A stretch of DNA of 64,000 nt from Betaproteobacteria bacterium Ga0077527 (lineage in GTDB: Bacteria > Pseudomonadota > Gammaproteobacteria > Burkholderiales > SG8-41). Below the pieces are notes generated by a model. It searched no databases, was not told where the DNA came from, and saw only the letters and a program-made list of their open reading frames with translations. Of the stretch, positions 10,009-34,329 are shown piece by piece. Position 1 is the stretch's first letter. Every line of letters begins with the position of its first letter. Both the position numbers and the translations under genes were made by a program. The stretch spans positions 8,920 through 72,919 of the forward strand of contig LNDW01000021.1 of assembly GCA_001464815.1 (NCBI GenBank). The letters run 5' to 3'.

Positions 10009-10018
10009 GAGAGTTGTG

Positions 10019-11305
10019 ATGAAAAACGCGATGACGACATTCAAGCGACGTGAATTCCTGAAATGGGCCGCGGCTGGCACAGGTGTTGCCGCGATGGGCG
10101 GCTGTGCAACCGCCGGCAGCGGCAGCGCGGGCCGCGTGGTGGTGATTGGCGGCGGTTATGGCGGCGCGACCGCGGCGAGGTTCATCAAGCTGTGGGCGCC
10201 GGACATCGATGTTGCGCTGATCGAGATGAACGATTATTTCGTCTCCTGCCCGATCAGCAACCTGGTGCTCGGCGGCAACGCCCAGATGAACCAGATCACC
10301 TTCAGCTACGACGGCCTGCGCAAGCGCGGCATCCGCGTCATCCGCGACGAGGCCATGGGCATCGACCCGGTGAAAAAAGTGGTTTCGCTGGCCAGCGGCG
10401 GCTCGGTGTCTTTTGACCGCGTCATCGTGTCCCCCGGCGTTGATTTTCTGTATGACCAGATTCCCGGCCTCAACACCCGGGAGGCGCAGATGCGCTTTTT
10501 CCATGCCTGGAAAGCCGGTCCGCAGACGGTGGCGCTGCGCAAGCAGCTCGAGGCGATGCGTGACGGCGGCGTTTACGCCATTCAGATTCCGATGGCGCCT
10601 TATCGCTGTCCGCCCGGCCCCTACGAACGCGTGTGCCAGGTGGCCGACTATTTCAAGAAGGCGAAACCGAAGTCGAAGATTCTCGTGCTCGACGCCAACC
10701 CCGACCTGGTATCGAAAAAAGGCCTGTTCCTCGCCGCCTGGGATGGCCTGTACAAGGGCATGATCGAATACCGTCCGAACAGCGAGATCGCCGATGTCGA
10801 CACCAAGGGCATGACGATCAAGCTGCAGTTCGATGATGTCAAGGCCGATGTCATCAATGTGGTGCCGGCGCAGCGCGCCGGAGATGTCGCGTTGCGCAGC
10901 GGCCTGATCACCGCCAACAACCGCTGGTGCGGCGTGGACTGGACCACCTGCGAATCATTGGCGGTGAAGGGCGTACACGTGCTGGGTGATGCCACTCTGT
11001 CCGGACCCGCGATGCCGAAGTCGGGCAGCATGGCCAACCAGCATGCCAAGGTCTGCGCGGCGGCGGTGATCGAGATGATCAAGGGCGGGCCGGTGAACAC
11101 CGACACCATGATGATGAACACCTGCTACAGCTTCGTCAGCGGTGACAGCGCGATGCACGTCGCTTCCGTGCATCGCTACGATCCGGCGCAGAAGACGATT
11201 GCGCCGGTGAAGGGCAGTGGTGGTGTTTCCACCGCGGCGAGCCAGGCCGAAGGCCTGTATGCCTGGGGCTGGGCCAGAAACATCTGGGCCGAAGCGCTGA
11301 CCTGA
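10019..11305 (+). CDS. fccB: Flavocytochrome c sulfide dehydrogenase flavoprotein subunit
   Basis: Tat signal (KRREFLKWAAAG), FAD fold VVVIGGGYGGATAA, and overall FccB/SoxF-like length (428 aa). Confidence 0.85.
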   Translation: MKNAMTTFKRREFLKWAAAGTGVAAMGGCATAGSGSAGRVVVIGGGYGGATAARFIKLWAPDIDVALIEMNDYFVSCPISNLVLGGNAQMNQITFSYDGLRKRGIRVIRDEAMGIDPVKKVVSLASGGSVSFDRVIVSPGVDFLYDQIPGLNTREAQMRFFHAWKAGPQTVALRKQLEAMRDGGVYAIQIPMAPYRCPPGPYERVCQVADYFKKAKPKSKILVLDANPDLVSKKGLFLAAWDGLYKGMIEYRPNSEIADVDTKGMTIKLQFDDVKADVINVVPAQRAGDVALRSGLITANNRWCGVDWTTCESLAVKGVHVLGDATLSGPAMPKSGSMANQHAKVCAAAVIEMIKGGPVNTDTMMMNTCYSFVSGDSAMHVASVHRYDPAQKTIAPVKGSGGVSTAASQAEGLYAWGWARNIWAEALT

Positions 11306-11789: not shown

Positions 11790-12641
11790 TCAGGCGGCCC
11801 CGGTGGCTACCGGACGCCGGCGGTCGCTGACCCATTCGCTCCATGAGCCGGGATAGAGGCGAGAGCCGCCGAGCCCGGCAACCTCCATCGCCAGCAGGTT
11901 GTGGCAGGCGGTGACACCGGAGCCGCATTGATGGATCACCGACTGGGGTGCAGCGCCGTTGATCGTCGCCTCGAACTCTTTTTTGAGCGCGTCCTGCTGT
12001 TTGAAGCAGCCGTCCTCATCGAGGTTGGATTTGAAAAAACGGTTCGTCGCCCCCGGGATGTGCCCGGCCACCGGATCCAGGGTTTCGTTTTCGCCGCGGA
12101 AACGGTCGGCCGCGCGGGCGTCGATGATCTTCGACTGCGCATCCTTCAGTTGTGCCAGCACCTGGCTGCTGTCGACCGACAGCTGGAGCTGCGGTTTGCC
12201 GGCGAACATCGCCGACGGAAACTGCGGCTGCTCGACGGTGTACGGCAGCTTGGCGCGGTTCCATGCAGCCCAGCCGCCGTCGAGCACGGCGACGTTCTGG
12301 TGGCCCAGCCAGCGCATCATCCACCACAGGCGCGCAGCGAAAGGCCCGCCACTGTCGTCATAGGCCACCACCTGCTTGCTGTTGTCGATGCCGAGTGCGC
12401 CAAGGCGCAGGCAGAAGGTGGCCGGATGTGGCAGCGGATGGCGGCCGTTGAGTCCGGTCTTCGGGCCCGAGAGGTCGACGTCGAGGTGCAGGAAGCGCGC
12501 ACCGGGAATGTGGCCGCTGCGATAGGCGCGGTATCCCGCGCTGTAGTCGGCCAGGTCGTGGCGGCAGTCGCAGAACACCCAGGACGGGTCGCGGAGGTGT
12601 TCGGCGGCATCGGTGGCGTTGATCAGTGTGGTGAAAGGCAT
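11790..12641 (-). CDS. sseA: Thiosulfate/3-mercaptopyruvate sulfurtransferase (tandem rhodanese)
   Basis: Start MPFTTLINA…; two rhodanese domains; active-site loop HQCGSGVTAC; …SGHIPGA… motifs. Confidence 0.85.
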   Translation of the reverse strand: MPFTTLINATDAAEHLRDPSWVFCDCRHDLADYSAGYRAYRSGHIPGARFLHLDVDLSGPKTGLNGRHPLPHPATFCLRLGALGIDNSKQVVAYDDSGGPFAARLWWMMRWLGHQNVAVLDGGWAAWNRAKLPYTVEQPQFPSAMFAGKPQLQLSVDSSQVLAQLKDAQSKIIDARAADRFRGENETLDPVAGHIPGATNRFFKSNLDEDGCFKQQDALKKEFEATINGAAPQSVIHQCGSGVTACHNLLAMEVAGLGGSRLYPGSWSEWVSDRRRPVATGAA

Positions 12642-12795
12642 TGCGGCGTCAGGAAAATCCGGAGCTGGGTTTGCGGGAGCGGCAAAGGTAGCAAACGCCG
12701 AACGAAAATCAAGCGCTGAAAACAGCACCGGCAGCCTGACCAATCGATCAATGCTGCCGGTCCGGCATCAGGACAGCCAGGACAAATATTTGTTT

Positions 12796-14131: not shown

Positions 14132-14794
14132 TTATCCCTCGCTTGTTGCGAATGAGCCATCGCCGCCGAGCAGGCCGCTCGCCTGCAGGCGCAGCCAGTC
14201 CTGCGGGCGGTCGATGTCCCACAGCGTTTCGAGTTCCTGCCAGCGCAGGCCGCAGTCGCGCAGGCGTGCGCGGGTTTGCGCGAGCACCTGATCGCCGCCC
14301 CAGCTGATGCTGCCGAACAGCCGCGGCTCATCACACGAGAGTCCGATCAGCACATAACCGCCATCCTCTGCCGGGAGCAGCACTGCATCGTTGCCAGCCT
14401 CCAGCTGCTTCGCAGCCGCAAGCAGATGCGCCGCGGTCAATGCCGGGCAATCGCTGCCGATGCACAACACGCGTGGTGCATCCTCCAGCGCCGAAGCAAA
14501 GGCGTGGGCGAGCCGGGCACCGAGATCTGCACCTTGCTGCACATGCAGGCTGGCGCTACAACGTGCCGCCGCGGCGATCAACTGCGGATGTGTTGCATCC
14601 GGTGCGCACCACAGTTGCAGCCGCGTTGGAGCCGCGGCGGCCGCGGTGTCGAGGGCATGGTTGAGCAGGCGCAGTTGCGCCGCTGCCGCACCTTCGGCAC
14701 CGAGCAGCGGTATCAGCCTGGTCTTGCTGGCGCCGGGCAGCGGTGCCCTGGCGAAGATCACCAGCGTGAAATCGCCGTGTTCAGCGGCGCGCAT
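14132..14794 (-). CDS. DUF2064/CofC-like transferase (rSAM/selenodomain-associated transferase 1 type)
   Basis: 220 aa. N-terminal VIFARAPLPGASKTRL nucleotidyl-transferase-like motif. Overlaps the upstream GT2 gene by 14 nt. Family assignment is from memory of TIGR04282 and from gene context. Confidence 0.7.
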   Translation of the reverse strand: MRAAEHGDFTLVIFARAPLPGASKTRLIPLLGAEGAAAAQLRLLNHALDTAAAAAPTRLQLWCAPDATHPQLIAAAARCSASLHVQQGADLGARLAHAFASALEDAPRVLCIGSDCPALTAAHLLAAAKQLEAGNDAVLLPAEDGGYVLIGLSCDEPRLFGSISWGGDQVLAQTRARLRDCGLRWQELETLWDIDRPQDWLRLQASGLLGGDGSFATSEG

Positions 14795-15461
14795 AACGTT
14801 GTGCCAGCAGCGCGGGGTCGGCGCCGCGCCAGTAGGCGTAACGCAGCTGCCACATCAGCATGATGGTGCGCCACAGGCCGTGGCGCTCCCAGCGCCGGCC
14901 GGAGGTGATGGCGCGATGGCTCAGGCACAGCGGCGCGCCATAGTGCTTGAGCTGCCGGCACAGCGCGATGTCCTCCATCAGCGGGATGTCGGCGAAGCGG
15001 CCTGCCGCCTCGAACAGGGAGCGGGTGACAAAGATCGCCTGATCGCCGGTGGCGATGCCGCTGAGCCGCGAGCGCCAGTTCATCATCACGGCGACCATGC
15101 CCAGCAGCGGATGACTGCCGCTGATCTGCACATCAAAACGGCCCCAGCTGCGGCGGCTGCGCGCCAGCCCGTCGCGGATCAGGCCGTCGGCACCTTCGGG
15201 CAGGCGGGTGTCGGCGTGAAGGAAGCACAGGATTTCCTTGCCGGACACCGCGGCGCCGGCATTCATCTGTCGGGCACGGCCGGCATCGGCAGGCAGCACT
15301 TTGTCGGCGAGCGGCCTGGCCAGCACCACCGTATCGTCACTGCTGCCGCCGTCGACGACGATGACCTCGCAGCCGCGCGCGCGTAATGGCGCGAGGGCTT
15401 CAAGCGCGGCGGTAATGCCTTCGGCCTCGTTCAGCGTCGGGACGATGAGGGACAGCGGCAT
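14781..15461 (-). CDS. Family-2 glycosyltransferase (rSAM/selenodomain-associated transferase 2 type)
   Basis: 226 aa with LIVPTLNEA…VIVVDGGSSDDT…, the GT-A DxD-type fold. Context matches TIGR04283-type genes. Confidence 0.75.
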   Translation of the reverse strand: MPLSLIVPTLNEAEGITAALEALAPLRARGCEVIVVDGGSSDDTVVLARPLADKVLPADAGRARQMNAGAAVSGKEILCFLHADTRLPEGADGLIRDGLARSRRSWGRFDVQISGSHPLLGMVAVMMNWRSRLSGIATGDQAIFVTRSLFEAAGRFADIPLMEDIALCRQLKHYGAPLCLSHRAITSGRRWERHGLWRTIMLMWQLRYAYWRGADPALLAQRYARR

Positions 15462-15467
15462 GCGGGA

Positions 15468-16298
15468 TCATTTTTTGATGTCATTCAGTGTCCAATCATA
15501 GTCGAGATGGCGCAGTGCGGCCTTGCCCGCGCGCAGGATGTTCTGCTGTTCGGCATTATCGGTAAGCAGGTTCGCGTAACGCCCGAACCACTGCTCGCGC
15601 GAGGTGACCGCGGGTGTCTTGCCGTCGAAACCGCGATAGCCACTCGTCCAGTCGACGCTGAACCACTTGAAGATTTCCGAGACTTCGAGGGTGTTGTCCT
15701 GTGCGTTGTAACGGTTGCGGCTGCGGTCCGACAGGAAGCGCCGGGTCTGTTCCTCGAGCTGGGCATCCAGGCGCGTGGCGACATAGGGCTCCTCGCGCAG
15801 CATCGGGCAGCCGACCGAGGCACAGTTCACCGCGAAGTGTACGCGCGGCTCGTCGTAGGCGCCCGGCTTGCGCAGCGTGTCGTGCTCGATGCCATCGAGA
15901 GAGAACTCGCGGCCGAACAGCGTGAAAAAACGGTCCTTGAACGGGTTGCCGAAGACCTTGCCGAAATCCCAGATCGACTTGATGTTCGGATGACGGGTCA
16001 GTATTTTTTCAATGGTGTAGGCGTTGTAGGCATTGATCAGGAAGGCCATCTGCTGCGGTTTGCTCCAGCCGTTGAACTCGGCCTGGCTGACCTTGGACAG
16101 CGTGGCGAGGTAGGCCCTGAGTTCAGCGCGGTCCTGGCTGAAGCCGGCGTAGCGGACCTGCGAGGATTTGCCGCCGTCGATAAGGACGACGTGTTTTTTG
16201 AGCAGGGCGGACCAGGCTTTGTGGTCGTGGTCGAAGGATTGGGCCAGGCCACCCGCCGGAAAAAACAGTATCAGTAGAGCTAATCCCAAGATTTTCAT
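15468..16298 (-). CDS. DUF547 domain protein (secreted)
   Basis: Signal peptide MKILGLALLILFFPAGGLAQ. …FLINAYNAYT…HFAVNCASVGCP… is the characteristic DUF547 core. Confidence 0.8.
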   Translation of the reverse strand: MKILGLALLILFFPAGGLAQSFDHDHKAWSALLKKHVVLIDGGKSSQVRYAGFSQDRAELRAYLATLSKVSQAEFNGWSKPQQMAFLINAYNAYTIEKILTRHPNIKSIWDFGKVFGNPFKDRFFTLFGREFSLDGIEHDTLRKPGAYDEPRVHFAVNCASVGCPMLREEPYVATRLDAQLEEQTRRFLSDRSRNRYNAQDNTLEVSEIFKWFSVDWTSGYRGFDGKTPAVTSREQWFGRYANLLTDNAEQQNILRAGKAALRHLDYDWTLNDIKK

Positions 16299-16319
16299 GA
16301 TTCTTTCCTTTGAAAGGCT

Positions 16320-16460
16320 TGTTGGCCGGGCGTAGCCCGGCGGCTAGTTACTTTCTCTTGCTTCGCCAAGAGAAAGTAACCAAAGAGAAGGCAACTCTGG
16401 CTCGCCGGTCCTTCGGACTCCCCTGCGCTGCTCAGCGGCTTACAAGGGGTTTAAATTCAA
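16320..16460. repeat. REP-like intergenic repeat element
   Basis: Hairpins gccggg-cgta-cccggc and a 14-bp stem gttactttctcttg/caagagaaagtaac (16347-16380). The sequence resembles a widespread proteobacterial intergenic repeat that yields spurious ORFs (…QEKVTKEKATL…). Confidence 0.6.
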
Positions 16461-16475
16461 AACCGGTGGCGCGAC

Positions 16476-18620
16476 TCATCCTCTTTGCCATGCGTGGAAT
16501 TTTTCCACCCATTCCAGCAATCGTTTCGGCGCATGCGCGCGCTTCCAGTTCCCCGCCACATATTTGTTCGCTTCCGCCAGCGTCGGGTAGATGTGGATGG
16601 TGCCAAGGATCTTGTTGAGGCCGATGCCGTGTTTCATGGCGCTGACAAATTCGGTAATCAGGTCGCCGGCGTGTTCGCCGGCGATGGTGGCGCCGAGGAT
16701 TTTGTCGCTGCCGGGCACGGTGAGTATTTTCACCAGGCCGTGGGCGTTGCCGTCGGCGATGGCGCGGTCGAGGTCGTCGATGCCGTAGGTGGTGATTTCG
16801 TGCGGGATGTTCTTTTCGCGGGCTTCAGTTTCGTTGAGGCCGACGCGCGCAACCTCGGGATCGGTGAAGGTGGCCCAGGGAATCACTGAAAAATCGGCGC
16901 GGAACTTCTTGAAGCCGCCGAACAGGCCGTTGACCGCCGCGTACCATGCGGTGTGCGCCGCGGTGTGGGTGAACTGGTATGGACCGGCAACATCACCGCA
17001 GGCGAGGATGTTGGGGTATTTGGTCTGCATGAACTCGTTGACTTCGACGGTGCGTGCCCTGGTCACCGGGATGCCGAGTTCCTCGAGGCCGTAGCCAGTG
17101 GTGTTGGCGATGCGGCCCACCGCGCAGAGCACGGCGTCGAAAGCGATGCGCAGCGCACCGCCAGCGTGGTCGCAGTAAAGCACCTTCTCACCATTTTCAA
17201 CGGCAAAGCGCTGCGCCTTGTGGCCGGTAAGCACGGTGATACCTTCGCTGCGGAATTTTTCCTCGACCATCGCCGAGATTTCAGGGTCTTCGCGCACCAT
17301 GACCCGCGGCAGCATCTCGACCTGGGTGACCTGTGCGCCGAGGCGTGCGAAGCACTGCGTCAATTCGCAGCCGATCGGGCCGCCGCCGAGCACCACCAGC
17401 CGCTTCGGCAGTGTGCGCAGGTCCCATACCGTGTCCGAGGTCAGCACGCCGACTTCGTCGATGCCGGGAATCGGCGGCACAAAGGGCCGCGCGCCGGTGG
17501 CAATGACAATGCCGCGCGTAGTCAGCGTTTTAGTCAGGCTCTGTTTGCCGGTGGCCGTGGTGATTTCAACAGACCATGGCGAAGTGATTTTGGCCTCGCC
17601 GCTGATGCACTCGACACCCAGCTGGCTGTAGCGCTCGACCGAGTCATGTGGCTCGATGTCGCGGATCACGCGCTGCACGCGTTCCATCACTTCGGCGAAA
17701 TCGAAGTCGACCTGCGTATCCTTCAGGCCGTAATGGCTGGCCTGCTTCATTGTCGCCACCAGTTTCGCCGACTTGATCAGCGCCTTCGATGGCACGCAGC
17801 CGGTGTTCAGGCAGTCGCCGCCCATCTTGTGCCGCTCGATCAGCGTCACCTTCGCCTTCACCGCGGCGGCAATGTAGGAGGACACCAGGCCGGCCGAGCC
17901 GGCGCCGATCACCACCAGGTTGCGGTCAAAGCGCGCCGGCCGGGTCCAGCCGGCGTAGACCTTGCGCGCCTTCAGCACATCCAGCACTTTTTTTGCGATC
18001 AGCGGAAACAGGCCTAGCAGCACAAAGGCGCCTATCAGTCCGGCACCGATCTTGAATGCGCCGAGCTGGGTGCCGGCATAGACATACACCGCGGTGCCGG
18101 CGAGCATGCCGAGCTGGCTCACCCAATAATAGGTCCAGGTGCGGATCGGGGTCAGCCCCATCAGCAGGTTGATCACAAAAAACGGAAACACCGGCACCAG
18201 CCGCAGGGCGAACAGGTAGAACGCCCCCTCCCGCGCCACGCCGTCATTGATCGATTTGAGTTTTTCGCCAAACCGGCCCTGCACCCAGTCACGCAGCAGA
18301 AAACGCGATGCAACAAAGGCGAGCGTGGCGCCGATGGTTGACGCAAACGACACGATCACCAGGCCCCAGAGCAGCCCGAAGATCGCGCCGGCGACCAGCG
18401 TCAGAATCGCGGCACCCGGCAGCGACAGCCCGGTGACGGCGACATAGATCGCGAAGAACAGCAGCGCCGCGCGCAGCGGATGCGCGGCGACCCCGGCCTC
18501 GATCGTGGCGCGCTGGGTCTGGAAATATTCCAGGGAAATGAAGCGCTGCAGATCGAGCGCGAAGAAGGTGATCACCGCGGTGACCACGATGATTCCCAGT
18601 AACATCTTGTTTTTATTCAT
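16476..18620 (-). CDS. TVP38/TMEM64 (DedA-like) membrane domain fused to a class-I FAD-dependent pyridine nucleotide-disulfide oxidoreductase
   Basis: Start MNKNKMLLGIIV…. The N-terminal ~230 aa are multi-TM. Then VVIGAGSAGLVSS, redox-active GGDCLNTGCVPSK, and a dimerisation domain. The track ORF extends 48 codons upstream without support. Confidence 0.85.
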   Translation of the reverse strand: MNKNKMLLGIIVVTAVITFFALDLQRFISLEYFQTQRATIEAGVAAHPLRAALLFFAIYVAVTGLSLPGAAILTLVAGAIFGLLWGLVIVSFASTIGATLAFVASRFLLRDWVQGRFGEKLKSINDGVAREGAFYLFALRLVPVFPFFVINLLMGLTPIRTWTYYWVSQLGMLAGTAVYVYAGTQLGAFKIGAGLIGAFVLLGLFPLIAKKVLDVLKARKVYAGWTRPARFDRNLVVIGAGSAGLVSSYIAAAVKAKVTLIERHKMGGDCLNTGCVPSKALIKSAKLVATMKQASHYGLKDTQVDFDFAEVMERVQRVIRDIEPHDSVERYSQLGVECISGEAKITSPWSVEITTATGKQSLTKTLTTRGIVIATGARPFVPPIPGIDEVGVLTSDTVWDLRTLPKRLVVLGGGPIGCELTQCFARLGAQVTQVEMLPRVMVREDPEISAMVEEKFRSEGITVLTGHKAQRFAVENGEKVLYCDHAGGALRIAFDAVLCAVGRIANTTGYGLEELGIPVTRARTVEVNEFMQTKYPNILACGDVAGPYQFTHTAAHTAWYAAVNGLFGGFKKFRADFSVIPWATFTDPEVARVGLNETEAREKNIPHEITTYGIDDLDRAIADGNAHGLVKILTVPGSDKILGATIAGEHAGDLITEFVSAMKHGIGLNKILGTIHIYPTLAEANKYVAGNWKRAHAPKRLLEWVEKFHAWQRG

Positions 18621-19615
18621 TATTTTTCCTGTGAGGCTTGGAGTGTTCGCAGCAGCATGCCGTTCACCGTGACGCCAGCGCCCATCGCGCGGTTCAGGCC
18701 GTAGCGCGGACCGTTGCGGATGCGCGCGCCATACGACAGTTCGGCGTCGCTGCCGGCCGGCCACTGCGTATCGAATTCTGTCTGCCAGGCAGCGCGGTCG
18801 TAGTGCAGCGGCAGTGCATCGACATGGATGCCGTCAATCACCGTGCCGTACAGCGCAGGCAGTGATGTCGCGGTGGTGGCGATGCGGGTGATCACGCCGA
18901 AGCCGGTGCCGGCGAAATTGGGCATGCCGGCGGCGCCGTTGTTGAACAGCGCGCAGTCGCGGCCATCGGCGCTGAAGCGCAGCGCAATCGGAAGACAGGT
19001 GTGGCTGCTGGCGATCACACGCGCGCGCGCGGCCACGCAGTGCGCGGCGAGGCGGCTGATGCCGGCGGCATCACGCAGCGCAGATTCGTCATAACTCCAG
19101 CCGGCCAGTGATTCGCAGTCGCCGTGCACGATGGCCACGCGCAGGCCGCCGACCTCGGCGACCAGCGTCATCGGCAGCGCGCCCAGCTTTTGGCGCAGCA
19201 CGCTCATGTCACTTGCCGTGCCGCGCAGCCGCGCGAGTATGGCGTTGGAGCGGCCGACTTCCGCCGCGCCAACTGATTCGGGATAACCGCAACCGCAACC
19301 CGCGGCATCATCGTCGCCGGCGAGTTCGGTTTCAACATTGCCGCGCAGCGCGTGGTGGCGCAATACACCGTCGTTGATGTCGACAAAGGCGCCGGCATCG
19401 ATGTTGAACCAGTTGAAGTCGCCGTTGAAGGCAAGGGTGGCGGGCGATGCTTCTTCGGCGGCCATGGTTTCGACGGCGCGCAGCGCAGGGCGGTTGCCGT
19501 AGAGGCCGCCGATCACATACAGCGTGTCGCTGACGATCTCCGGCGCGCGTGCGAGCGAAGTCGCCGCATAGCGGTAATGCAGCGGGCAGCTGCGACCGGG
19601 CTCATGGCTGTTCAT
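18620..19615 (-). CDS. Metallophosphoesterase-fold protein with degenerate metal-ligand motifs
   Basis: 331 aa with YVIGGLYGN / FNGDFN / RGNVE / IVHGD / SSHTC in the order of calcineurin-like motifs I-V, but with several ligand substitutions. TAATG junction with the downstream gene and ATGA junction with the upstream gene. Confidence 0.55.
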   Translation of the reverse strand: MNSHEPGRSCPLHYRYAATSLARAPEIVSDTLYVIGGLYGNRPALRAVETMAAEEASPATLAFNGDFNWFNIDAGAFVDINDGVLRHHALRGNVETELAGDDDAAGCGCGYPESVGAAEVGRSNAILARLRGTASDMSVLRQKLGALPMTLVAEVGGLRVAIVHGDCESLAGWSYDESALRDAAGISRLAAHCVAARARVIASSHTCLPIALRFSADGRDCALFNNGAAGMPNFAGTGFGVITRIATTATSLPALYGTVIDGIHVDALPLHYDRAAWQTEFDTQWPAGSDAELSYGARIRNGPRYGLNRAMGAGVTVNGMLLRTLQASQEK

Positions 19616-20997
19616 CGCGGGCCGCGCAGCCGCTGTAGCGCCAGCGGCAGCAGGAAGCCGGCGATGCAGATCAGCAGGCCGTAAAGATTGGTGCCAAGCA
19701 GCAGCGCGTATTTGCCGTCCCCGATCGCCCAGCTTTGCGGAATCTGTCCCGCGGCGAGCAACACACCGAGGATCACGCCGGGCCAGAAGGCGAGGTGGAA
19801 GCTCGATGGCGAATGTTTCACCAGCGGCGCCAGCAGGAAAATGGGTGCGAGGCCCATCACCATGGTGCCGCTGACCGTGGTGGCCTTGAGGATGTCAGTG
19901 CCGGCGATCATCGGCAGGTTGCCGAGCAGCGCGAAGGCGCACATGGTCCACATCCCAATGAGCATCGCCCGCGGGCCGGGTTTGCGGCCGGCCAGCATTG
20001 GCAGTTCCTGACCGATGGATTTCGCCACCGAGGAGAAAGTTGAATCGAGCGTGGAGCCCGCGGCCATGATCATCACCACCGTCATCAGCAGGTAGGGCAG
20101 CACGCCAAAGGCGCCGGCAACCGCGCCCGGCATGTTGTCACCGGCGGGCAGTCCTTCGAGCCTGGCATGTACGCCAACAAGGCTGAAGGCGAAGATGCAT
20201 GCAAAGCCCAGCACGCCGGCGGTGATCATCGCGCGCAGCATGGTTTTTTCGCGGGTGATGAATCCGCGGTCGGTCAGTACTGGATCGTGGAAGGGATAGG
20301 ACAGCACCTGCAGCAGCGCCACCAGGATCAGGTCGACGCCGGCGTTGAGGCGGAAGTCGCCGTCGGTGAGCAGTGTGCCGAGGCCGTGCTGCGGCAATAC
20401 CAGGAACAGCACCACGCCGAGGACCACCACGAACAGCACCGCCTGGATGACGTCAGTGAAGATCGAGCTGCGCAGCCCGCCCTTCAAGCTGTAGAACAGG
20501 GTGGCCGCGGTGAACAGCAGCGCCGAACCGATGAAAGTCCATTCCCCGGCCTTGCCGTAATAGGCGCCGACCACGGCGGTGTTGCTCCATACCTCGTTGT
20601 AGAGCCGGATCAGGATTGCCAGCGTGAAGGCCAGCGCGGCAAGCCGGCCGTAGCGCTGGATCAGGAAAGACACCATGCCGGTCGCGCCGTGTCGGGTGCG
20701 CAGCCAGTAGATGACCAGCCCTGCGACCGGAATCGACAGCCAGTAAGTGGCGTAAGCCAACCCGCCGACGACGCCCCAGGCCGCGCCGAGGTTTGCGGCG
20801 TTGGTCACCGACTTGGCGAAAATCCAGCTGATGAAGATGCTGCACATCAGCGCCCATTCGGTTGCGGGGCGCCCGGCATCGTCACTGCCGGTAAAAAAAC
20901 TGGCCTCGCTGCGCGCGTTGGGCGAGATCGCATACATCACCCCGCCGTAGAGCAGCAGGAAGCCCCAGAAGTAGATGGCGAAGGCCGGTTCGATCAT
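19612..20997 (-). CDS. Sodium:solute symporter (SSS) family transporter
   Basis: Start MIEPAFAIYFWGFLLLYGG…; ~12-13 TM helices; ATGA overlap with arsS. The track ORF is extended 74 codons upstream into arsS. Confidence 0.75.
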   Translation of the reverse strand: MIEPAFAIYFWGFLLLYGGVMYAISPNARSEASFFTGSDDAGRPATEWALMCSIFISWIFAKSVTNAANLGAAWGVVGGLAYATYWLSIPVAGLVIYWLRTRHGATGMVSFLIQRYGRLAALAFTLAILIRLYNEVWSNTAVVGAYYGKAGEWTFIGSALLFTAATLFYSLKGGLRSSIFTDVIQAVLFVVVLGVVLFLVLPQHGLGTLLTDGDFRLNAGVDLILVALLQVLSYPFHDPVLTDRGFITREKTMLRAMITAGVLGFACIFAFSLVGVHARLEGLPAGDNMPGAVAGAFGVLPYLLMTVVMIMAAGSTLDSTFSSVAKSIGQELPMLAGRKPGPRAMLIGMWTMCAFALLGNLPMIAGTDILKATTVSGTMVMGLAPIFLLAPLVKHSPSSFHLAFWPGVILGVLLAAGQIPQSWAIGDGKYALLLGTNLYGLLICIAGFLLPLALQRLRGPR

Positions 20998-21965
20998 GAT
21001 TCGTGCCCCAGCGCGCCGCCGCAGCTCGAGCCCTGGCCGGCGGTGCAGCCATAACAATGGTCCTTGACGACGATCGGATTGCCGTCGAGATCGGCGCCGA
21101 TCAGCTCGCGCAAATGCGTGCCTGGCCTGCCCTTCCACTCCAGGGGCAGGCCGAGCATCTGGTTGAAGTCGCAGTCGTACACGTAGCCCTGCCAGTCCAC
21201 CGACAGCAGCGAGCGGCACATCACGGTATCCAGGTTTTCGGGACGATAGGCGCTTTTGAGCAACTGCATATAGGGATCGAACTGGCCTTTGCTGACCAGC
21301 GTGCTGCCAAAGCGCTGGATCGGCATGTTGGCCAGCACATAGAGCTGGTTGAAGACGATGCCGTGGGCTGCACCGAGGCGCTGCTTGTAGTCCTGCTCGA
21401 GTTTTTGCTGGGCGGGCGGCAGCACCGGGCCCTGCGGGTTGTAGACCAGGTTGAGCACCAGCCCGGAGCCGGGTTTGCCGTAGCCGAGTGCGTTGAGGGT
21501 TTGCAGCGCGCGGATGCTGGCCTTGAACACGCCGTCGCCACGCTGGCGGTCAACGTTGTCTTCAAGGTAACAGGGCAGCGAGGCGGTGATCTCGACCTGC
21601 TGGGCGGCGAGGAATCCGGCGAGCCCTTCCTGTCCGGGCTCAAAAAGGATGGTCAGGTTGCAGCGGTCGATCACGCGCACGCCCAGCCGCCGCGCCGATT
21701 GGACCAGCAGGCGGAAATGCGGATTGAGTTCCGGCGCGCCGCCGGTGAGGTCGAGGGTTTTGATGGCCGCGGCCTTGAGAAAGGCAACGACTTCAAAAAT
21801 GGTGTCGCGCGCCATCAGCTCGGTGCGCGTGGGGCCGGCGTTGACGTGGCAGTGCAGGCAGCTCTGGTTGCATTTGTAGCCGAGGTTGGCCTGCAGCGTG
21901 TCCGGCGCGCGGCGGCGTAGCGCCGGAAAGTCACTTTGTTCAAGCAGGGGCAGCGTCGCGCGCAT
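20994..21965 (-). CDS. arsS: ArsS-type radical SAM / Cys-rich (selenodomain-type) protein
   Basis: 323 aa. CNQSCLHC radical-SAM cluster motif. C-terminal CYGCTAGQGSSCGG, which is the Cys version of the Sec-containing tail I recall for this family (TIGR04167). Confidence 0.8.
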   Translation of the reverse strand: MRATLPLLEQSDFPALRRRAPDTLQANLGYKCNQSCLHCHVNAGPTRTELMARDTIFEVVAFLKAAAIKTLDLTGGAPELNPHFRLLVQSARRLGVRVIDRCNLTILFEPGQEGLAGFLAAQQVEITASLPCYLEDNVDRQRGDGVFKASIRALQTLNALGYGKPGSGLVLNLVYNPQGPVLPPAQQKLEQDYKQRLGAAHGIVFNQLYVLANMPIQRFGSTLVSKGQFDPYMQLLKSAYRPENLDTVMCRSLLSVDWQGYVYDCDFNQMLGLPLEWKGRPGTHLRELIGADLDGNPIVVKDHCYGCTAGQGSSCGGALGHES

Positions 21966-22286
21966 CAGTCGGGTCTCCGGGATGGCCTGTGGTATCGCTG
22001 GCCGGGAACTGGGTATTCAAATAAATAAGTCAGTCGAGTATGCCGCGCCAACCTTACAACGCTGGCGGGCTCGTTGGTGTATACCGATGATATTTCATAA
22101 GTAATTGATTTTGTTTATTTATTTTTGATGCTGATCGTGGCTTCGAGTCATGACTTGTCAGTCGTGCCGGCATCGCTGGCGCAGTGCCGCGGATTGCGCA
22201 AAACCGTTCGCCGGATTCAACCACACGCTGTTATGGAATGAGCAGTCTATAATGAAAAAAAACCGGTTCCGCCACGAGGAGACGAG

Positions 22287-22733
22287 ATGAAACCGTTCTG
22301 GATGCTGTTGCCGCTGCTGTCGATGCTGGCTGGACCTGTCAATGCCACCGACGGCATGATTGCCCTGAAAAGCCCGCACAACGTGAAGACCACGCTGGAC
22401 CGCTTCGAAGCCGCGGCGAAGGAGCGCGGGCTCAATGTGTTCTTGCGCGTTGACCACGCCGCCGGCGCGCTGAAGGTCGGCAAGACCCTGCGACCGACCG
22501 AGCTGCTGGTCTTCGGCAACCCCCAGGGCGGAACGCCGCTGATGGAATGCGCGCAGGGTGCCGGCATCGATCTGCCGCTGAAGGCGCTGGCCTGGCAGGA
22601 CGCGGCCGGACAGGTCTGGCTCGGGTACAACGATCCGGCTTATCTCGCGAAGCGTCACGCCGCCGCGGATTGTGCCGTGGTGCCCAGCCTGCAAAAGGCG
22701 CTGGCCGGCCTGGCCCAAGAGGCCGTGCGCTGA
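22287..22733 (+). CDS. DUF302 domain protein (periplasmic)
   Basis: 148 aa. Signal peptide MKPFWMLLPLLSMLAGPVNA. …LLVFGNPQGGTPLM…DLPLKALAWQD… is the DUF302 core. Confidence 0.8.
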   Translation: MKPFWMLLPLLSMLAGPVNATDGMIALKSPHNVKTTLDRFEAAAKERGLNVFLRVDHAAGALKVGKTLRPTELLVFGNPQGGTPLMECAQGAGIDLPLKALAWQDAAGQVWLGYNDPAYLAKRHAAADCAVVPSLQKALAGLAQEAVR

Positions 22734-23314
22734 TGGCACGGCCGCGTGAATTTGACGCTGATGCGGCACTTGGCAGCGCAATGCAGGCGTTCTGGGCCCG
22801 TGGTTACAGGGCGACCTCAATCGACGATCTGTGCGCGGCCACCGGGCTGAGCCGTTCCAGCCTGTACGCGGCCTACGGCGGCAAGCGCGCGCTGCTGCAC
22901 CTCGCGCTGGAGCGTTACGAGCAGGATGCGCTCAGGCGCATCCGCGCCGTGCTGGCGCAGCCGCTGCCGGTGCGCGAGGCCATCGCCGCGTTCATCGACG
23001 GCCAGATCGAGCGTATCGTCGCCGGCCCCGGGCGTGCCGGCTGCTTCATCGGCAACTGCGCCGCGGAATTGTCCGGCGACCGCGCCACCGCGGCGCGGGT
23101 GCGGCGCAGCCTTGCCAGCATCGAGGCGGCGTTCAGCGAGGGCCTCGCCCGTGCGCGGGTGAATGGCGAGATCGCCGCCGACGCGGACATCGCATCACTG
23201 GCACGGTTTCTGGTGTCCGGTATCCAGGGGCTGCGGCTGGTGGGCAAGGCCAATCCCGACCGTGTAGTGCTGGGCGACATTGCCTCTGTAATGCTGCGCT
23301 GTCTCGACCGCTGA
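22733..23314 (+). CDS. TetR/AcrR family transcriptional regulator
   Basis: Start MARPREFDADAAL…; HTH …GYRATSIDDLCAATGLSRSSLYAAYGGKRAL; TGATG overlap with the DUF302 gene. Confidence 0.88.
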   Translation: MARPREFDADAALGSAMQAFWARGYRATSIDDLCAATGLSRSSLYAAYGGKRALLHLALERYEQDALRRIRAVLAQPLPVREAIAAFIDGQIERIVAGPGRAGCFIGNCAAELSGDRATAARVRRSLASIEAAFSEGLARARVNGEIAADADIASLARFLVSGIQGLRLVGKANPDRVVLGDIASVMLRCLDR

Positions 23315-23347
23315 GACTGCAACCGATCCATGACAACAGGAGGACTC

Positions 23348-23959
23348 ATGCAAAACCGAAAACCCGATCCGCGGCTCGCACCGTTGCCGCAGGAAACCAC
23401 GCCTGAGCTCGCCGGCGCTTTTCAGACCTATGTGCGCGTGCTTGGTTTTGTGCCGAACAGCGTGCTGATCATGCAGCGCAAGCCGAAGCTGGTGCAGGCC
23501 CTGTCACAACTCGCCGCCGCGACCTGGGATCCGCAGAGCGAGGTGCCGATCGCGTTCAAGCGCATGCTCGCCCATGTCGCGAGCCGCGCCCACGGCTGCC
23601 ATTACTGAATGGCGCACACGGCCGGGGCGGCGCTCGGGCTGGGTTATGACGATAAAAAGCTGGAAGCGGTATGGGAGTTCCGCAGTAATCCGTTGTTCAC
23701 GGACGCGGAGCGCGCGGCGCTGGAAGTGGCCATCGCGGCGGCGGCGCAGCCAAACGCGGTGACCGACGAGATGTTCGCTGAACTGAAAAAGCACTGGAGC
23801 GAAGGCCAGATTGTCGAGATCGTCGGCGTGGTTTCGATGTTCGGCTTCATGAACCGCTGGAACGACACGATGGCGACGCCACTGGAGGAGGAGCCGGTCC
23901 ACGTCGGCGAGAAGCATCTCGCAAAAAGCGGTTGGAACGTGGGCAAGCACCAGCGTTGA
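23348..23959 (+). CDS. AhpD/carboxymuconolactone-decarboxylase-like peroxidase-related protein, candidate selenoprotein (in-frame TGA at 23606-23608)
   Basis: AGGAGG RBS 5 nt before ATG 23348. ORFs 23330..23608 and 23609..23959 are contiguous in one frame. Read-through gives …ASRAHGCHY-U-MAHTAG…, which puts the TGA at the second Cys of the AhpD-type CxxC motif. Confidence 0.6.
23620..23640 (+). promoter_or_regulatory. Possible SECIS-like hairpin (weak) for TGA 23606
   Basis: Begins 11 nt after the TGA. GGCCGGG/CUCGG(G)CU forms a ~7-bp stem with one bulge and G:U pairs, loop GCGGCG. Imperfect. Confidence 0.3.
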
Positions 23960-23980
23960 AACCCCAAGAAAGGATTGAAC

Positions 23981-25198
23981 ATGGCCCGATTGTCTGATTT
24001 TTCGGAAGCTGAAAAAAAACACCACCTCGACAAGATCCTCGATTTTCCGGATTTCGGCGAGACGCCCATTGCGGAAGGTCCGGCGCTGGCGCAGCGCCGG
24101 GTGGCGATTATCACCACCGCCGGCCTGCATCTGCGTAATGACCGGCCGTTTGACGGCGGCGCCGCCGATTACCGGGTGATTCCCGGCGATGCGCCGGCCG
24201 CGGACCTGGTGATGAGCCATGTCTCGGTGAACTTCGACCGCACCGGTTTCCAGGAAGACCTCAATGTGGTGTTTCCGCTGGACCGCCTGCGCGAGCTGGC
24301 GGACGAAGGCATGGTTGGCGCCGTGGCTGACATCCATTACTCGTTCATGGGGGCGACGCAGATGCGCGCGCTGGAGGCCAAGGCGCGTGAACTGGCCGGG
24401 CTGCTGAAAAAAGACCGTGTCGATGCGGTGCTGCTCAGTCCGGTCTGACCGAACTGCACGTGCGCCGTGGGCGCACTCGGTCATTACCTGGAACGCGAAG
24501 GCATTCCCACCGCGCAGATCAGCCTGATCCGCGAACAAACCGCGGCGATTCGGCCGCCACGCGCGCTGTGGGTGCCGTTCATGCTGGGCCGCCCCTTTGG
24601 CGTGCCGGGTGATGCCGCTTTCCAGCGCCGCGTGCTGGTGGCGCTGTTGTCGCTGTTCGAACGCAAAGCGGGTCCGCTGCTCGAGGATTACGCTGAAGAC
24701 GCGCCCGCGGAATCGCTGGACGCCGGCGGCTTTGCCTGCCCGGTGAGTTTTGCCGGCAGTGCCGCGGCGGATCGCGGGCTGGCCGAAGCGCTGAGGGATG
24801 AGGTGAGGCAGCTCGCGTCGTGGCACGGACTGGCTTTGCGCCGGCGTGGCCGCAGTACGGTCGGCGTGTTCGGCCCCACGGTGGATGCCGCCGTGGAGCA
24901 TGTGGTTTCATTTCTTGATCAGCATCCGCAGACGCCGCCGGTTGAGGGCATGACCGCTGGCACCGCGATCAAACGCGCCTGCGACGATCTCAGGGCCTAT
25001 TACTTCGAGGCGGCCGCGGCGCAGCCGGGAAATCTGTCTTCGGCGGCAATCGATCGCTGGTTCTGGAGCGACACCGCCGCTGCGCGAGCGTTGTTTGCGA
25101 TTCGCGATATCTGCCTGGGCAGCAGCGATCCTTCGCTCAGGCCGCTGGGCAAGCTCAGCCTGATTCCGCGAGCGGTGGCGGAGGGCCGGCCACGCTAA
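23981..25198 (+). CDS. Glycine/sarcosine/betaine/D-proline reductase selenoprotein-B (GrdB/PrdB) family homologue, candidate selenoprotein (in-frame TGA at 24446-24448)
   Basis: ORFs 23975..24448 and 24467..25198 share a frame. Read-through gives …VDAVLLSPV-U-PNCTCAVGALGHYLEREGIPTAQISLI…, which parallels the GrdB motif …TST-U-GTCTRCGA…ERAGIP… as I recall it. Confidence 0.72.
24460..24476 (+). promoter_or_regulatory. SECIS-like stem-loop for TGA 24446
   Basis: 17-nt hairpin GUGCGC-CGUGG-GCGCAC (perfect 6-bp stem, GU in the loop) starting exactly 11 nt after the UGA. This is the geometry of the minimal E. coli fdhF SECIS. Confidence 0.6.
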
Positions 25199-32512: not shown

Positions 32513-33856
32513 TCAGGTCAGTAAAGTCCACGCGGCGCCTACAACGGCACACACCCCGATCACCGGCATGATGCCCACCTTGTAGCGCCACAGCGCGACA
32601 AAGGCGGCGATGCCGATCACCGCCGAAGGCCAGTCGAAGCGGCCCTGCAGGCCTTCGGGCCACAGCACGTGGTAGGCGAAAAACACTGCAAGGTTGAGAA
32701 TCACGCCGACCACGGCGGCGGTGATGCCGGTGAGCGGGGCGGTGAATTTGAGTTCGCCGTGGGTGGTCTCGACCAGAGGGCCGCCGAGCAGGATGAAAAT
32801 GAAGCTGGGCAGGAAGGTGAACCAGGTCACCACCGCGGCGGCGAGCGCGCCGGCCGCGACCAGCCGGTCAGTACCGAGGAATTCGGTGGTCCAGCCGCCG
32901 ACGAAACCGACGAAGGCCACCACCATGATCAGCGGGCCCGGCGTGGTTTCGCCCAGCGCGAGGCCGTCGATCATCTGGTGGGGCGTCACCCACTGGAAGT
33001 GCTCCACCGCGGCCTGGTAGACATAGGGCAGCACGGCGTAGGCGCCGCCGAAGGTAAGCAACGCAGCTTTGGTGAAAAACCAGCCCATCTGGCGCAGCGT
33101 GCTGTCCCAGCCGAAGCTGGCGACGATGATCGCCATGCCCGTGGCCCACAGCGCGAGGCCGAAGGCAAGCACGCGGTAGAAGCGGCCCCAGGAGAAACGC
33201 GCATGTTCGGGCGTCGGCGTGTCGTCGTCGATCACCGCCGGGCCGTAGTCCTTGTCCGCCGCGCCATGTCCGCCGCCCATCTCGAACAGCTTCGGCCGCA
33301 GCCGGCCGCCGATCCAGCCGGCAATGCCGGCGCCGATGACGATCAGCGGGAACGGCAAATCCAGCGCGAACAGGCCGATGAAGGCTGCCGCGGCAAAACC
33401 CCACAACACGCCGTTTTTCAGCGCGCGTGAACCGATGCGGATGGCGGCAAAGACCACGATGGCGGTCACCGCGGGCTTGATGCCGTAGAGGATGCCGGCG
33501 ATGGCGGGCACGTCGCCCCAGGCCATGTAGATCCACGTCAGCGCGATCAGGATGAACAGCGAGGGCAGCACAAACAGCCCGCCGGCGACGATGCCGCCCC
33601 AGGTGCGGTGCATCAGCCAGCCGATGTAGGTGGCCAGTTGCTGCGCCTCGGGGCCGGGCAGCACCATGCAGTAGTTGAGCGCATGCAGAAAGCGGCGCTC
33701 GGAGATCCAGCGCCTTTTCTCCACCAGCTCCTGGTGCATGATCGAAATCTGCCCCGCAGGGCCGCCGAAGCTGATGAAGCCGAGTTTGAGCCAGAAGCGG
33801 AAGGCTTCGGCGAAGGAGATGCTGCGTGTTTCGCCTTCCGGTGCGGCTGCGCTCAT
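32513..33856 (-). CDS. chrA: Chromate efflux transporter ChrA
   Basis: 447 aa. …FRFWLKLGFISFGGPAGQISIMHQELVEKRRWISERRFLHALNYCMVLPGPEA… and a duplicated CHR domain. Confidence 0.9.
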   Translation of the reverse strand: MSAAAPEGETRSISFAEAFRFWLKLGFISFGGPAGQISIMHQELVEKRRWISERRFLHALNYCMVLPGPEAQQLATYIGWLMHRTWGGIVAGGLFVLPSLFILIALTWIYMAWGDVPAIAGILYGIKPAVTAIVVFAAIRIGSRALKNGVLWGFAAAAFIGLFALDLPFPLIVIGAGIAGWIGGRLRPKLFEMGGGHGAADKDYGPAVIDDDTPTPEHARFSWGRFYRVLAFGLALWATGMAIIVASFGWDSTLRQMGWFFTKAALLTFGGAYAVLPYVYQAAVEHFQWVTPHQMIDGLALGETTPGPLIMVVAFVGFVGGWTTEFLGTDRLVAAGALAAAVVTWFTFLPSFIFILLGGPLVETTHGELKFTAPLTGITAAVVGVILNLAVFFAYHVLWPEGLQGRFDWPSAVIGIAAFVALWRYKVGIMPVIGVCAVVGAAWTLLT

Positions 33857-34188
33857 CGCGGTTCCCCGCTGCGGGCTTCGATTGCGCCACCTGTGGCACG
33901 CCAGGCCTCAAGGCCGCCCTCCAGGAACCGTGCCTGCAGGCCCTGCGCGCGCAGCGCGGCGGCGGCGTTCTGGCTGACCTGGTGGCCGTGCACGCAATAC
34001 ACCACCACCGGTGTATCGCGCGGCAGGGCCGGGCCCCAGGCGGCGACGGCTTCGGGGTCGCGGCGCATAGCGCCGGCAATGCGGTCAGGGGCGACGACAT
34101 ACACGGCCTCGCGCCTCACATCGATGACCAGCGGGGCGGGGTCTTGCCGGCGGAGGGTGGAAAGTTGCTCAGGGGTGATGTGGTCCAT
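33853..34188 (-). CDS. Single-domain rhodanese-like protein (chrA-associated)
   Basis: Start MDHITPEQLSTL…. Active-site loop VVYCVHGHQVSQ. The stop overlaps the chrA start (ATGA). Confidence 0.75.
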   Translation of the reverse strand: MDHITPEQLSTLRRQDPAPLVIDVRREAVYVVAPDRIAGAMRRDPEAVAAWGPALPRDTPVVVYCVHGHQVSQNAAAALRAQGLQARFLEGGLEAWRATGGAIEARSGEPR

Positions 34189-34329
34189 GCCGGCTCCTTC
34201 GCGATGGCGAATACACACGAAGGCAGTGCTTGGACGCGGGGCGTCTGAGCCGGGGAGCCTGCCGATATCCCCGTGAAACAACAACGATTCTGCGTTACGG
34301 GTTATGCCGCGTCAATGCCGCAGACGGGA

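Follow-up and report, generated by a model that had tools for sequence, protein, structure and literature searches.

A stretch of 64,000 nucleotides (nt) from Betaproteobacteria bacterium Ga0077527 (assembly GCA_001464815.1, contig LNDW01000021.1, positions 8,920 to 72,919), referred to here at its full length as the window, carries at 22287-25198 four closely packed genes that encode a DUF302 protein, a TetR-family regulator, an AhpD-like protein and a PrdB/GrdB-like protein (hereafter PrdB-like). The last two have an in-frame TGA at the position of a redox-motif Cys. Our results suggest, with a probability of about 0.55, that these genes constitute a TetR-controlled operon with two genuine selenoproteins, in which a PrdB-like reductase is recycled by the AhpD-like protein. 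Comparison with related genes makes it virtually certain that the UGA of the PrdB-like gene would be decoded as selenocysteine (Sec), and very probable that the UGA of the AhpD-like gene would be decoded in the same way. The genes are as follows (aa, amino acids).

22287-22733, + strand: DUF302 gene, 148 aa; Pfam PF03625, 2.8e-20
22733-23314, + strand: TetR-family regulator gene, 193 aa; Pfam TetR_N 1.6e-10, TetR_C_13 3.3e-09
23348-23959, + strand: AhpD/CMD-like selenoprotein gene, 203 aa; Pfam CMD 1.6e-08
23981-25198, + strand: PrdB/GrdB-like selenoprotein gene, 405 aa; Pfam GRDB 3.1e-09

A preliminary description of this DNA had proposed four same-strand genes with junctions of -1, 33 and 21 nt, two of them with Sec at redox-motif Cys positions. 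Coordinates and junctions were confirmed, Pfam confirms all four families, and the placement of Sec is borne out by Cys in homologues, conserved TGAs and downstream hairpins, in a CxxU motif in one protein and a UxxC motif in the other. The same description had raised the possibility that the TGAs are assembly errors. This is excluded, given that four independent metagenome assemblies of the organism (at least four samples) have identical TGAs and flanks; these assemblies include two activated-carbon metagenome samples and the Joint Genome Institute (JGI) metagenome 3300002461 (contig AADWTP_10000071, 557,939 bp).

Probable selenocysteine decoding

The sites in question lie at the following positions (SECIS, selenocysteine insertion sequence).

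23606-23608, + strand: in-frame TGA of the AhpD-like gene, within G-C-H-Y-[TGA]-M-A-H
23621-23639, + strand: SECIS-like hairpin of the AhpD-like gene, 8 positions per arm, loop GGC, beginning 12 nt past the UGA
24446-24448, + strand: in-frame TGA of the PrdB-like gene, within S-P-V-[TGA]-P-N-C-T-C
24460-24476, + strand: SECIS-like hairpin of the PrdB-like gene, GUGCGCC-GUG-GGCGCAC, beginning exactly 11 nt past the UGA

The PrdB-like gene was compared with its relatives in 80 fetched genome loci from Burkholderiales, other Betaproteobacteria, Alphaproteobacteria, Desulfobacterota, Gammaproteobacteria and one Dehalococcoidia metagenome-assembled genome (MAG), which together with the window make up 81 loci with 83 PrdB-like copies. 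All 83 have TGA at the Sec codon, within the conserved peptide PV-U-PxCT (U, Sec), and all eight full-length database homologues, 43-49% identical, have Cys at this position (PVCPxCT). In the window protein the motif is U156-P-N-C159 (UxxC), located within the N-terminal alpha/beta core. The hairpin that follows has 90% of its cells paired across 80 distinct sequences, compared with 26-64% when the partners are slid, and its loop is GUN, in keeping with the G of the apical loop in a bacterial SECIS. Pair 16-30 covaries (C-G in 35 sequences, U-A in 35 and U-G in 4), its 3' partner being a synonymous third codon position, GCA versus GCG/GGG. The fold z-score for the region 24436-24495 is -3.13, and the spacing of 11 nt between UGA and stem is that of the SECIS of Escherichia coli fdhF.

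Gene callers split both selenoprotein genes, the AhpD-like one into 86 + 116 aa and the PrdB-like one into 155 + 243 aa, and the fragments carry the annotation 'hypothetical protein' or PrdB. The closest database homologues of the PrdB-like protein are likewise all split exactly at the TGA, into pieces of 155 aa and ~245 aa. When the N-terminal half was used as a query, 118 of the 120 best matches were exactly 155 aa long and ended at the TGA; database proteins of ~240-260 aa, up to 91% identical, match only the part past it. A search with the C-terminal part returned 1164 clusters at 50% identity, 204 of them at <=1e-30, and among the best 150 clusters 149 are fragments (mostly ~245 aa, starting just past the TGA) and one is a full-length Cys form. 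Taken together, these numbers indicate that the PrdB-like family is large and almost always contains Sec.

In the AhpD-like protein the motif is C84-H-Y-U87-M-A-H90, with Sec in place of the second Cys of CxxC (CxxU). Residue 87 is Cys in 12 of 12 aligned homologues (GCxYC[MQI]AHT), and C84 and H90 are invariant in 13 sequences. The TGA is kept in the orthologues and paralogues that stand beside PrdB-like genes in L001, L002 (two), L004, L005, L007, L008 and L029 (two), so that, with the window included, ten of the ten AhpD-like genes located no more than ~400 nt from a PrdB-like gene contain Sec, each with a TGA and an 8-bp hairpin. In these ten sequences 93.8% of the hairpin cells are paired, as opposed to 30-62.5% with the partners slid. 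The loop is GGC or GUC across the Sec forms, and the hairpin of L004 has a compensatory change from C-G to U-A. In Cys-form homologues the peptide AHTAGAALRLG is unchanged, with CUG as the Leu codon where the Sec forms have CUC, and the stem no longer forms.

Genes for the Sec machinery adjoin PrdB-like genes in some Alphaproteobacteria. In L041 (4306-9221) the order is selA-selB-tRNA(Sec)-PrdB-like; in L064 (1290-9227) selA, selB, tRNA(Sec) and selD lie immediately upstream of the PrdB-like gene; and in L051 a tRNA(Sec) gene (4381-4475) is found ~3.5 kb from it.

Family relationships of the two proteins

The PrdB-like protein exceeds the cut-off of the Pfam family GRDB (PF07355), with 37 bits against 22. 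The match stops at residue 153, profile position 345/347, three residues short of the Sec. The best NCBIfam matches are PrdB (4.4e-29) and GrdH (2e-15), but all the curated thresholds are missed: 101.6 bits against 300 for TIGR04483 (PrdB), 41.4 against 602.2 for TIGR01917, 50.1 against 65.45 for TIGR01918, 49.6 against 800 for NF040794 and 56.6 against 775 for NF040795. With its UxxC motif the protein measures 405 aa, compared with ~240 aa for single-domain PrdB. The core homologous to GRDB spans approximately residues 35-222 and is followed by an extra helical domain at ~223-405 (~180 aa) that has no Pfam match. This C-terminal domain is present in all PrdB-like copies, with C253, W281, R289, R291, T293, G295, D336 and E343 invariant. 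An AlphaFold2 model of the Cys homologue P0040 (mean predicted local distance difference test score, pLDDT, 85.5; predicted template modelling score, pTM, 0.85) is made up of an N-terminal alpha/beta domain and an all-helical C-terminal domain. A sequence search of the PDB with the PrdB-like protein returned no PrdB or GrdB relative.

As the preliminary description had stated, the classical Grd and Prd partners are missing: no PrdA/GrdE (Gly_reductase) or GRDA gene was found within 10 kb of the operon, and PrdA, GrdE or GrdA is not a recurrent neighbour of PrdB-like genes across the 80 loci. Most likely the protein is a GRDB-superfamily enzyme that stands alone and is neither a proline reductase nor a glycine reductase. 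The name PrdB is probably wrong for this family, because PrdA is missing, the score stays far under the cut-off and a helical domain of ~180 aa has been added at the C-terminus.

Two further observations were made on PrdB-like genes. Two loci of Alphaproteobacteria (L072, 8001-10433; L078, 8001-10423) contain tandem duplicates, in which either copy has a TGA and a hairpin of its own. Burkholderiales-like copies, 57-69% identical to that of the window, were found in MAGs labelled Streptomyces/Streptomycetaceae or 'Bordetella parapertussis' (L003, L012, L022; L011, L013, L017, L026), and these labels are probably due to mis-binned or mislabelled records.

The AhpD-like protein, with U replaced by C, scores 34.9 bits against Pfam CMD (PF02627), above the cut-off of 23, and 65.6 bits against TIGR01926 ('peroxidase-related enzyme'), below the cut-off of 81.8. 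It is thus a relative of that subfamily and no certified member. The closest solved relative in a PDB search is the debrominase Bmp8, to which it is 33% identical over 174 aa (3.1e-28); the remaining solved AhpD-like proteins match at 1.7e-08 or weaker. The peroxidase role suggested earlier for the AhpD-like protein is not supported.

Gene neighbourhoods of the PrdB-like family

All open reading frames (ORFs) within 5 kb of the PrdB-like genes were clustered across the 81 loci. No gene emerged as a universal partner; the commonest true neighbour family is TctC, found in 17 loci. Upstream of the PrdB-like gene, ten fetched loci besides the window have a TetR gene. The complete order DUF302-TetR-AhpD(U)-PrdB(U), where U denotes a Sec form, occurs besides the window in L001 and L004 only. 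The order TetR-AhpD(U)-PrdB(U) occurs in L005 and L029, and L002 has the same three genes with TetR further upstream. In L007 and L008, TetR-PrdB(U) is accompanied by a Sec-form AhpD-like gene downstream, and in L002 and L029 two Sec-form AhpD-like paralogues flank the PrdB-like gene.

These data do not show a broad four-gene synteny, the arrangement being confined to a handful of close relatives at one chromosomal site. Of the 80 fetched loci, three (L001, L004 and L006) have a DUF302 gene called upstream in the same orientation, and tblastn finds more distant copies in L029 and L020; DUF302 is the least firmly attached member of the operon. L001, L002, L004, L005, L006, L029 and the window have ispA, dxs and folE downstream in common, the site being upstream of xseB-ispA-dxs. 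These are therefore orthologous sites in related genomes, which do not provide independent evidence.

Outside the immediate vicinity of PrdB-like genes, Cys forms of the AhpD-like protein were found. The AhpD-like paralogues that lie upstream in L001, L004 and L006 have Cys, as do the close homologues P0121, P0123 and P0127 (70-79% identical), for which the DNA was fetched. Other Cys-form AhpD homologues are located in clusters with coenzyme A (CoA) transferase III (CoA_transf_3), glyoxalase, TctC and Ldh_2 genes and no PrdB-like gene. The families CoA_transf_3, TctC and Ldh_2 are common to the surroundings of AhpD-like and PrdB-like proteins in different genomes: an Ldh_2 family dehydrogenase lies directly upstream of the PrdB-like gene in seven loci, and CoA-transferase III, glyoxalase and glycerate-kinase genes are also among the PrdB-like neighbours.

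Type II haloacid dehalogenases (HAD) are encoded beside or near PrdB-like genes in five loci from three classes, with 145-227 bits against the TIGR01428 cut-off of 125.4.

L029, 6134-6646: type II haloacid dehalogenase gene (TIGR01428)
L035, 7238-7969: type II haloacid dehalogenase gene (TIGR01428)
L055, 7263-7949: type II haloacid dehalogenase gene (TIGR01428)
L067, 9249-9953: type II haloacid dehalogenase gene (TIGR01428)
L051, 9364-10215: type II haloacid dehalogenase gene (TIGR01428)

In L029 the order is HAD-TetR-AhpD(U)-PrdB(U)-AhpD(U), the dehalogenase occupying the slot held by DUF302 in the window. A YfcG-like glutathione-dependent disulfide oxidoreductase gene adjoins the PrdB-like gene in L008 and L042 and is nearby in L039 and L011. 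Finally, five Desulfobacterota loci have a MEDS helix-turn-helix (MEDS-HTH, DcmR-type) regulator near the PrdB-like gene, directly downstream of it in four.

Layout of the probable operon and upstream region

That the four genes form one transcription unit is probable, judging from their spacing. The ATG of the TetR gene and the TGA of DUF302 overlap by one base (A), a purine-rich Shine-Dalgarno-like sequence precedes every start, including AGGAGG 8 nt upstream of the AhpD-like start, and a scan placed no terminator-like site on the coding strand inside the four genes. The presumed promoter and operator region is the interval between the operon and the divergent arsS gene.

21966-22286, no strand assigned: intergenic region between the operon and arsS, AT-rich around 22090-22140

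No inverted repeat of >=10 nt that might mark a TetR operator was found in 21960-22300, and no match to the sigma-70 consensus was found upstream of the operon. The TetR protein passes both domain cut-offs (TetR_N, 41 bits against 24; TetR_C_13, 37.5 bits against 27).

The DUF302 protein, presumably periplasmic, has a signal-peptide-like N-terminus, judged by eye, that reads MKPFWMLLPLLSMLAGPVNA before TD. It matches PDB entry 7tj1, 'Putative fluoride ion transporter CrcB' (9.4e-36), and the C-terminal half of the NCBIfam CrcB model NF002454 (4.2e-35). A link between DUF302 and fluoride was considered and given little weight. The CrcB names are probably a naming artefact from a fused or mis-annotated gene model, because the matched part is the soluble DUF302 domain, and the literature searched contained nothing on a connection between DUF302 and fluoride.

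Other genes in the window

A divergent cluster lies upstream of the operon, at 14132-21965 on the - strand. Its arsenosugar-type genes are those for the TIGR04282 transferase, the TIGR04283 glycosyltransferase, the DUF547 protein and ArsS. The radical S-adenosylmethionine gene in it had been assigned to ArsS from a family often encoding selenoproteins; the assignment is correct, and the protein is here a Cys form.

14132-14794, - strand: TIGR04282 transferase
14781-15461, - strand: TIGR04283 glycosyltransferase
15468-16298, - strand: DUF547 protein
16476-18764, - strand: fusion of a DedA/VTT membrane domain and a pyridine-nucleotide-disulfide oxidoreductase, 762 aa
18620-19615, - strand: protein without family match, 331 aa
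20994-21965, - strand: ArsS, TIGR04167 455.6 bits; Cys form, no in-frame TGA
from 21000 as called in the twin locus L081, frame extending to a GTG at 21219, - strand: weak sodium/solute-symporter-like protein

The only Rfam match in the window at gathering thresholds is a chrB-b motif, which adjoins a rhodanese gene (~33853-34188) and a chromate transporter gene (32513-33856), positions being given by offset from L081. Three further genes belong to sulfur metabolism.

34223-34273, - strand: chrB-b RNA motif, 56.8 bits against a gathering threshold of 36.5
9959-11305: flavocytochrome c sulfide dehydrogenase flavoprotein
11790-12743: double rhodanese
46694-48403: sulfite/nitrite reductase

Discussion

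The reading that we prefer, a TetR-controlled operon with a recycled selenoprotein reductase, may be described as follows. The hairpin 11-12 nt past each UGA would recruit SelB-tRNA(Sec), so that the codon is read as Sec. By analogy with the chemistry of PrdB (PMC13188914), the substrate would be a small molecule, probably with a carboxylate group, at whose electrophilic centre the selenolate of Sec156 attacks, and Cys159 would resolve the adduct, with formation of a Se-S bond. The AhpD-like protein (C84-x-x-U87) may then act as a dedicated thiol/selenol oxidoreductase that re-reduces this bond; in other lineages the same task may fall to a YfcG-like glutathione S-transferase (GST) or to general thioredoxin. 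TetR would de-repress the operon in the presence of the substrate or of a related stress compound. The AhpD-like protein is the best recycling candidate within its clade, because only its Sec forms adjoin PrdB-like genes and because a disulfide-reducing GST takes that position in other clades. With no pyruvoyl subunit present, the leaving group of the substrate is presumably one that needs no Schiff-base activation, and the gene neighbours point to small alpha-substituted carboxylic acids as the substrate class. The two-component selenol-based reductase envisaged in the preliminary description is, with the AhpD-like genes beside PrdB-like genes all in the Sec form and those in other contexts in the Cys form, a reasonable reading. 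That the two selenoproteins are functionally coupled is nonetheless held tentatively, at slightly under even chances, because the two genes adjoin in a restricted lineage only and either protein can be found in the absence of the other.

Several observations weigh against the preferred reading. The AhpD-like/PrdB-like adjacency is limited to one Burkholderiales clade and is not seen at every locus there, and most PrdB-like genes have unrelated neighbours, without an AhpD-like gene. L056 has no AhpD-like gene in the sequence examined, and in L006, with the order DUF302-TetR-PrdB(U), the only AhpD-like gene is the Cys paralogue further upstream. The Cys-form AhpD protein P0121, 79% identical to that of the window, is encoded at the same chromosomal site (L085, 793-3285) in the order extracytoplasmic function (ECF) sigma-NrsF-CMD-xseB, and a PrdB-like gene is missing there; a switch from Sec to Cys, or from Cys to Sec, seems to have gone along with loss or gain of the PrdB-like partner. 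The AhpD-like stem of the window itself has one G.G mismatch, which results from a change of Arg CGG to Gly GGG at a position that is paired in all nine other Sec forms. The mismatch is found in 3 of the 3 independent assemblies that cover the gene, and it slightly lowers the confidence in Sec for the AhpD-like protein. The window has no tRNA gene, and no selA, selB or selD was found among 20 large ORFs tested in a non-exhaustive scan. Comparison of the P0040 model with PDB folds gave nothing significant (best E 0.04, query-normalised TM-score <=0.20), and neither its fold nor the C-terminal domain pointed to a function. In addition, co-transcription and TetR control are inferred, as is each of the chemical steps.

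The most serious competitor accepts both selenoproteins as real and takes them to be functionally independent, the AhpD-like protein being a general antioxidant or stress oxidoreductase and the PrdB-like protein a reductase that uses thioredoxin or glutathione, with adjacency due to shared regulation or to the ancestry of the site. The confinement of the full arrangement to close relatives with the xseB-ispA-dxs site, the many PrdB-like genes without an AhpD-like neighbour, the Cys-form orthologue behind ECF sigma and NrsF and the Cys-form homologues in CoA-transferase/glyoxalase/TctC/Ldh_2 clusters are all compatible with independence. It does not explain so readily why Sec-form AhpD-like genes stand specifically beside PrdB-like genes (10/10), why two of them flank the PrdB-like gene in L002 and L029, why the intergenic gaps are as tight as 17-44 nt, or why CoA_transf_3, TctC and Ldh_2 surround both proteins in different genomes, and we consider it somewhat unlikely. 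An alternative of lower standing still, in our view distinctly unlikely, is that the operon is a module for reductive dehalogenation or haloacid detoxification, in which the Sec of the PrdB-like protein would displace halide from an alpha-halo carboxylate, as proposed for FarB with fluoroacetate, and/or the CxxU of the AhpD-like protein would attack a halogen atom, as in Bmp8 and, with Sec, in the thyroid deiodinases. The Bmp8 match of the AhpD-like protein, the proposal of the GrdB homologue FarB as a fluoroacetate reductase (PMC10838667), the haloacid dehalogenase neighbours in L029, L035, L051, L055 and L067, the MEDS regulators in Desulfobacterota, the missing pyruvoyl partner, which fits a leaving group without a Schiff base, and the origin of the DNA in an activated-carbon metagenome are all in line with it. 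These links are, however, indirect and chosen post hoc. Most loci of this very large family have no such neighbours, the window itself has no dehalogenase, the Ldh_2, CoA-transferase, TctC and glycerate-kinase neighbours indicate only small organic acids, and the DUF302/'CrcB' link may be an annotation artefact.

The two remaining explanations concern the identity of the genes. It is highly improbable that the PrdB-like protein is a true B subunit of D-proline, glycine or betaine reductase with Prd or Grd partners elsewhere in the genome. PrdB and GrdH are its best NCBIfam matches, JGI labels the fragments PrdB and the environmental family goes by the name of proline reductase in selenoproteome papers; against this stand the scores far under the curated cut-offs (101.6 against 300, 41.4 against 602.2, 50.1 against 65.45), the C-terminal domain in all copies, the lack of PrdA, GrdE or GrdA within 10 kb and as recurrent neighbours in the 80 loci, and the hosts, which are mostly Burkholderiales and Alphaproteobacteria of lakes and groundwater. 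The chance that the TGAs are ordinary stops, in pseudogenes, split genes or erroneous sequence, is smaller still and close to nil. The splitting by gene callers, the absence of a SECIS match in the window among Rfam families at gathering thresholds and the imperfect AhpD-like hairpin would agree with it, but it is contradicted by the comparative data: TGA in 83/83 copies with strong protein conservation on either side, covarying hairpins, four agreeing assemblies, Cys at both positions in homologues and sel genes that adjoin in relatives.

Both families are known. 'AhpD-like (CxxU)' and 'proline reductase PrdB (UxxC, pfam07355)' have been catalogued as selenoprotein families since 2005 (PMC1088965, PMC2398784). 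Selenoproteome surveys place them among the most abundant selenoproteins of marine and fresh waters, in the Sargasso Sea and the Global Ocean Sampling (GOS) data among others, with 299 AhpD-like and 235 PrdB genes counted in GOS (PMC1088965, PMC2398784), and both were also reported in the Olavius delta-1 symbiont (PMC1976440; reviews PMC9312934, PMC13188914), whose locus L058 carries a PrdB-like copy in our set. The genes of the operon are thus new members of known selenoprotein families and no new class of selenoprotein or of system. The environmental 'PrdB' family of the surveys, which was named by homology only, has the same Pfam family, the same UxxC motif and the same strong excess of Sec over Cys as the PrdB-like protein of the window, and the 155-aa PrdB-like fragments are labelled PrdB by JGI; we infer that the two families are the same. 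The surveys do not describe for environmental 'PrdB' a stand-alone two-domain architecture, a lack of PrdA, or AhpD-like, type II HAD or sel neighbours. In the literature searched there was no description of the two-domain architecture, of failed PrdB criteria, of AhpD-like/PrdB-like pairing or of sel adjacency, and a search on 'PrdB-like' or 'GrdB-like' proteins returned only papers on fluoroacetate in Synergistota.

The AhpD-like protein of the window resembles the AhpD-like selenoproteins (COG2128/TIGR01926) first predicted in the Sargasso Sea in its CMD fold family, in Sec at the second Cys of CxxC, in the downstream bacterial SECIS and in the widespread Cys homologues; it differs in scoring just under the TIGR01926 cut-off and in belonging to a subgroup whose Sec forms stand specifically beside PrdB-like genes. 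With Bmp8, the tetrabromopyrrole debrominase of Pseudoalteromonas (PDB 6ohi, 6ohj), it shares the active-site segment G-C-x-Y-C-x-x-H. Bmp8 has been proposed to remove bromine reductively, with oxidation of its two cysteines to a disulfide (PMC5577590). Bmp8 is a Cys-Cys protein of a natural-product cluster with a known substrate, whereas in the window protein the second Cys is Sec and the context is different.

D-proline reductase PrdA/PrdB and protein B of the glycine, sarcosine and betaine reductases (GrdB/E, GrdF/G, GrdH/I) have a core homologous to that of the PrdB-like protein, with Sec in UxxC, and are presumed to work through a selenoether/Se-S catalytic cycle (PMC13188914). In contrast, the PrdB-like protein has no pyruvoyl or partner subunit and no GrdA, GrdC or GrdD, carries the C-terminal helical domain, falls under all equivalog cut-offs and occurs in lineages largely not known for Stickland fermentation. 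FarB/FarE of Cloacibacillus porcorum is a system in which a GRDB-family selenoprotein is proposed to act on an acetate derivative by breaking a C-X bond of its alpha carbon that is not C-N (PMC10838667). FarB works with the GrdE-like FarE, a radical S-adenosylmethionine protein and Grd A/C machinery in an anaerobe, whereas none of these is present at the operon of the window.

A wider proposal, which we put forward as speculative and rather unlikely, is that PrdB-like proteins make up an enzyme family of their own, which acts alone and depends on Sec almost without exception. Its members would carry out, with no pyruvoyl subunit, the reductive removal of a halide or similarly good leaving group from small carboxylic acids. 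Such proteins would be served by lineage-specific thiol/selenol recyclers, here a Bmp8-like Sec AhpD protein that perhaps itself dehalogenates in the manner of a deiodinase. Given that sel genes adjoin the PrdB-like gene in some Alphaproteobacteria, this protein may be a principal reason why these organisms (L041, L064, L051) keep the Sec trait. If the leaving-group proposal is true, the PrdB-like family could keep the Sec trait alive in many aerobic Proteobacteria. The name PrdB stands for a Stickland enzyme of anaerobic metabolism, which these organisms are unlikely to possess. The operon brings together two selenoprotein families that abound in the environment and puts them under a single regulator of the small-molecule-responsive type, which makes their function experimentally approachable.

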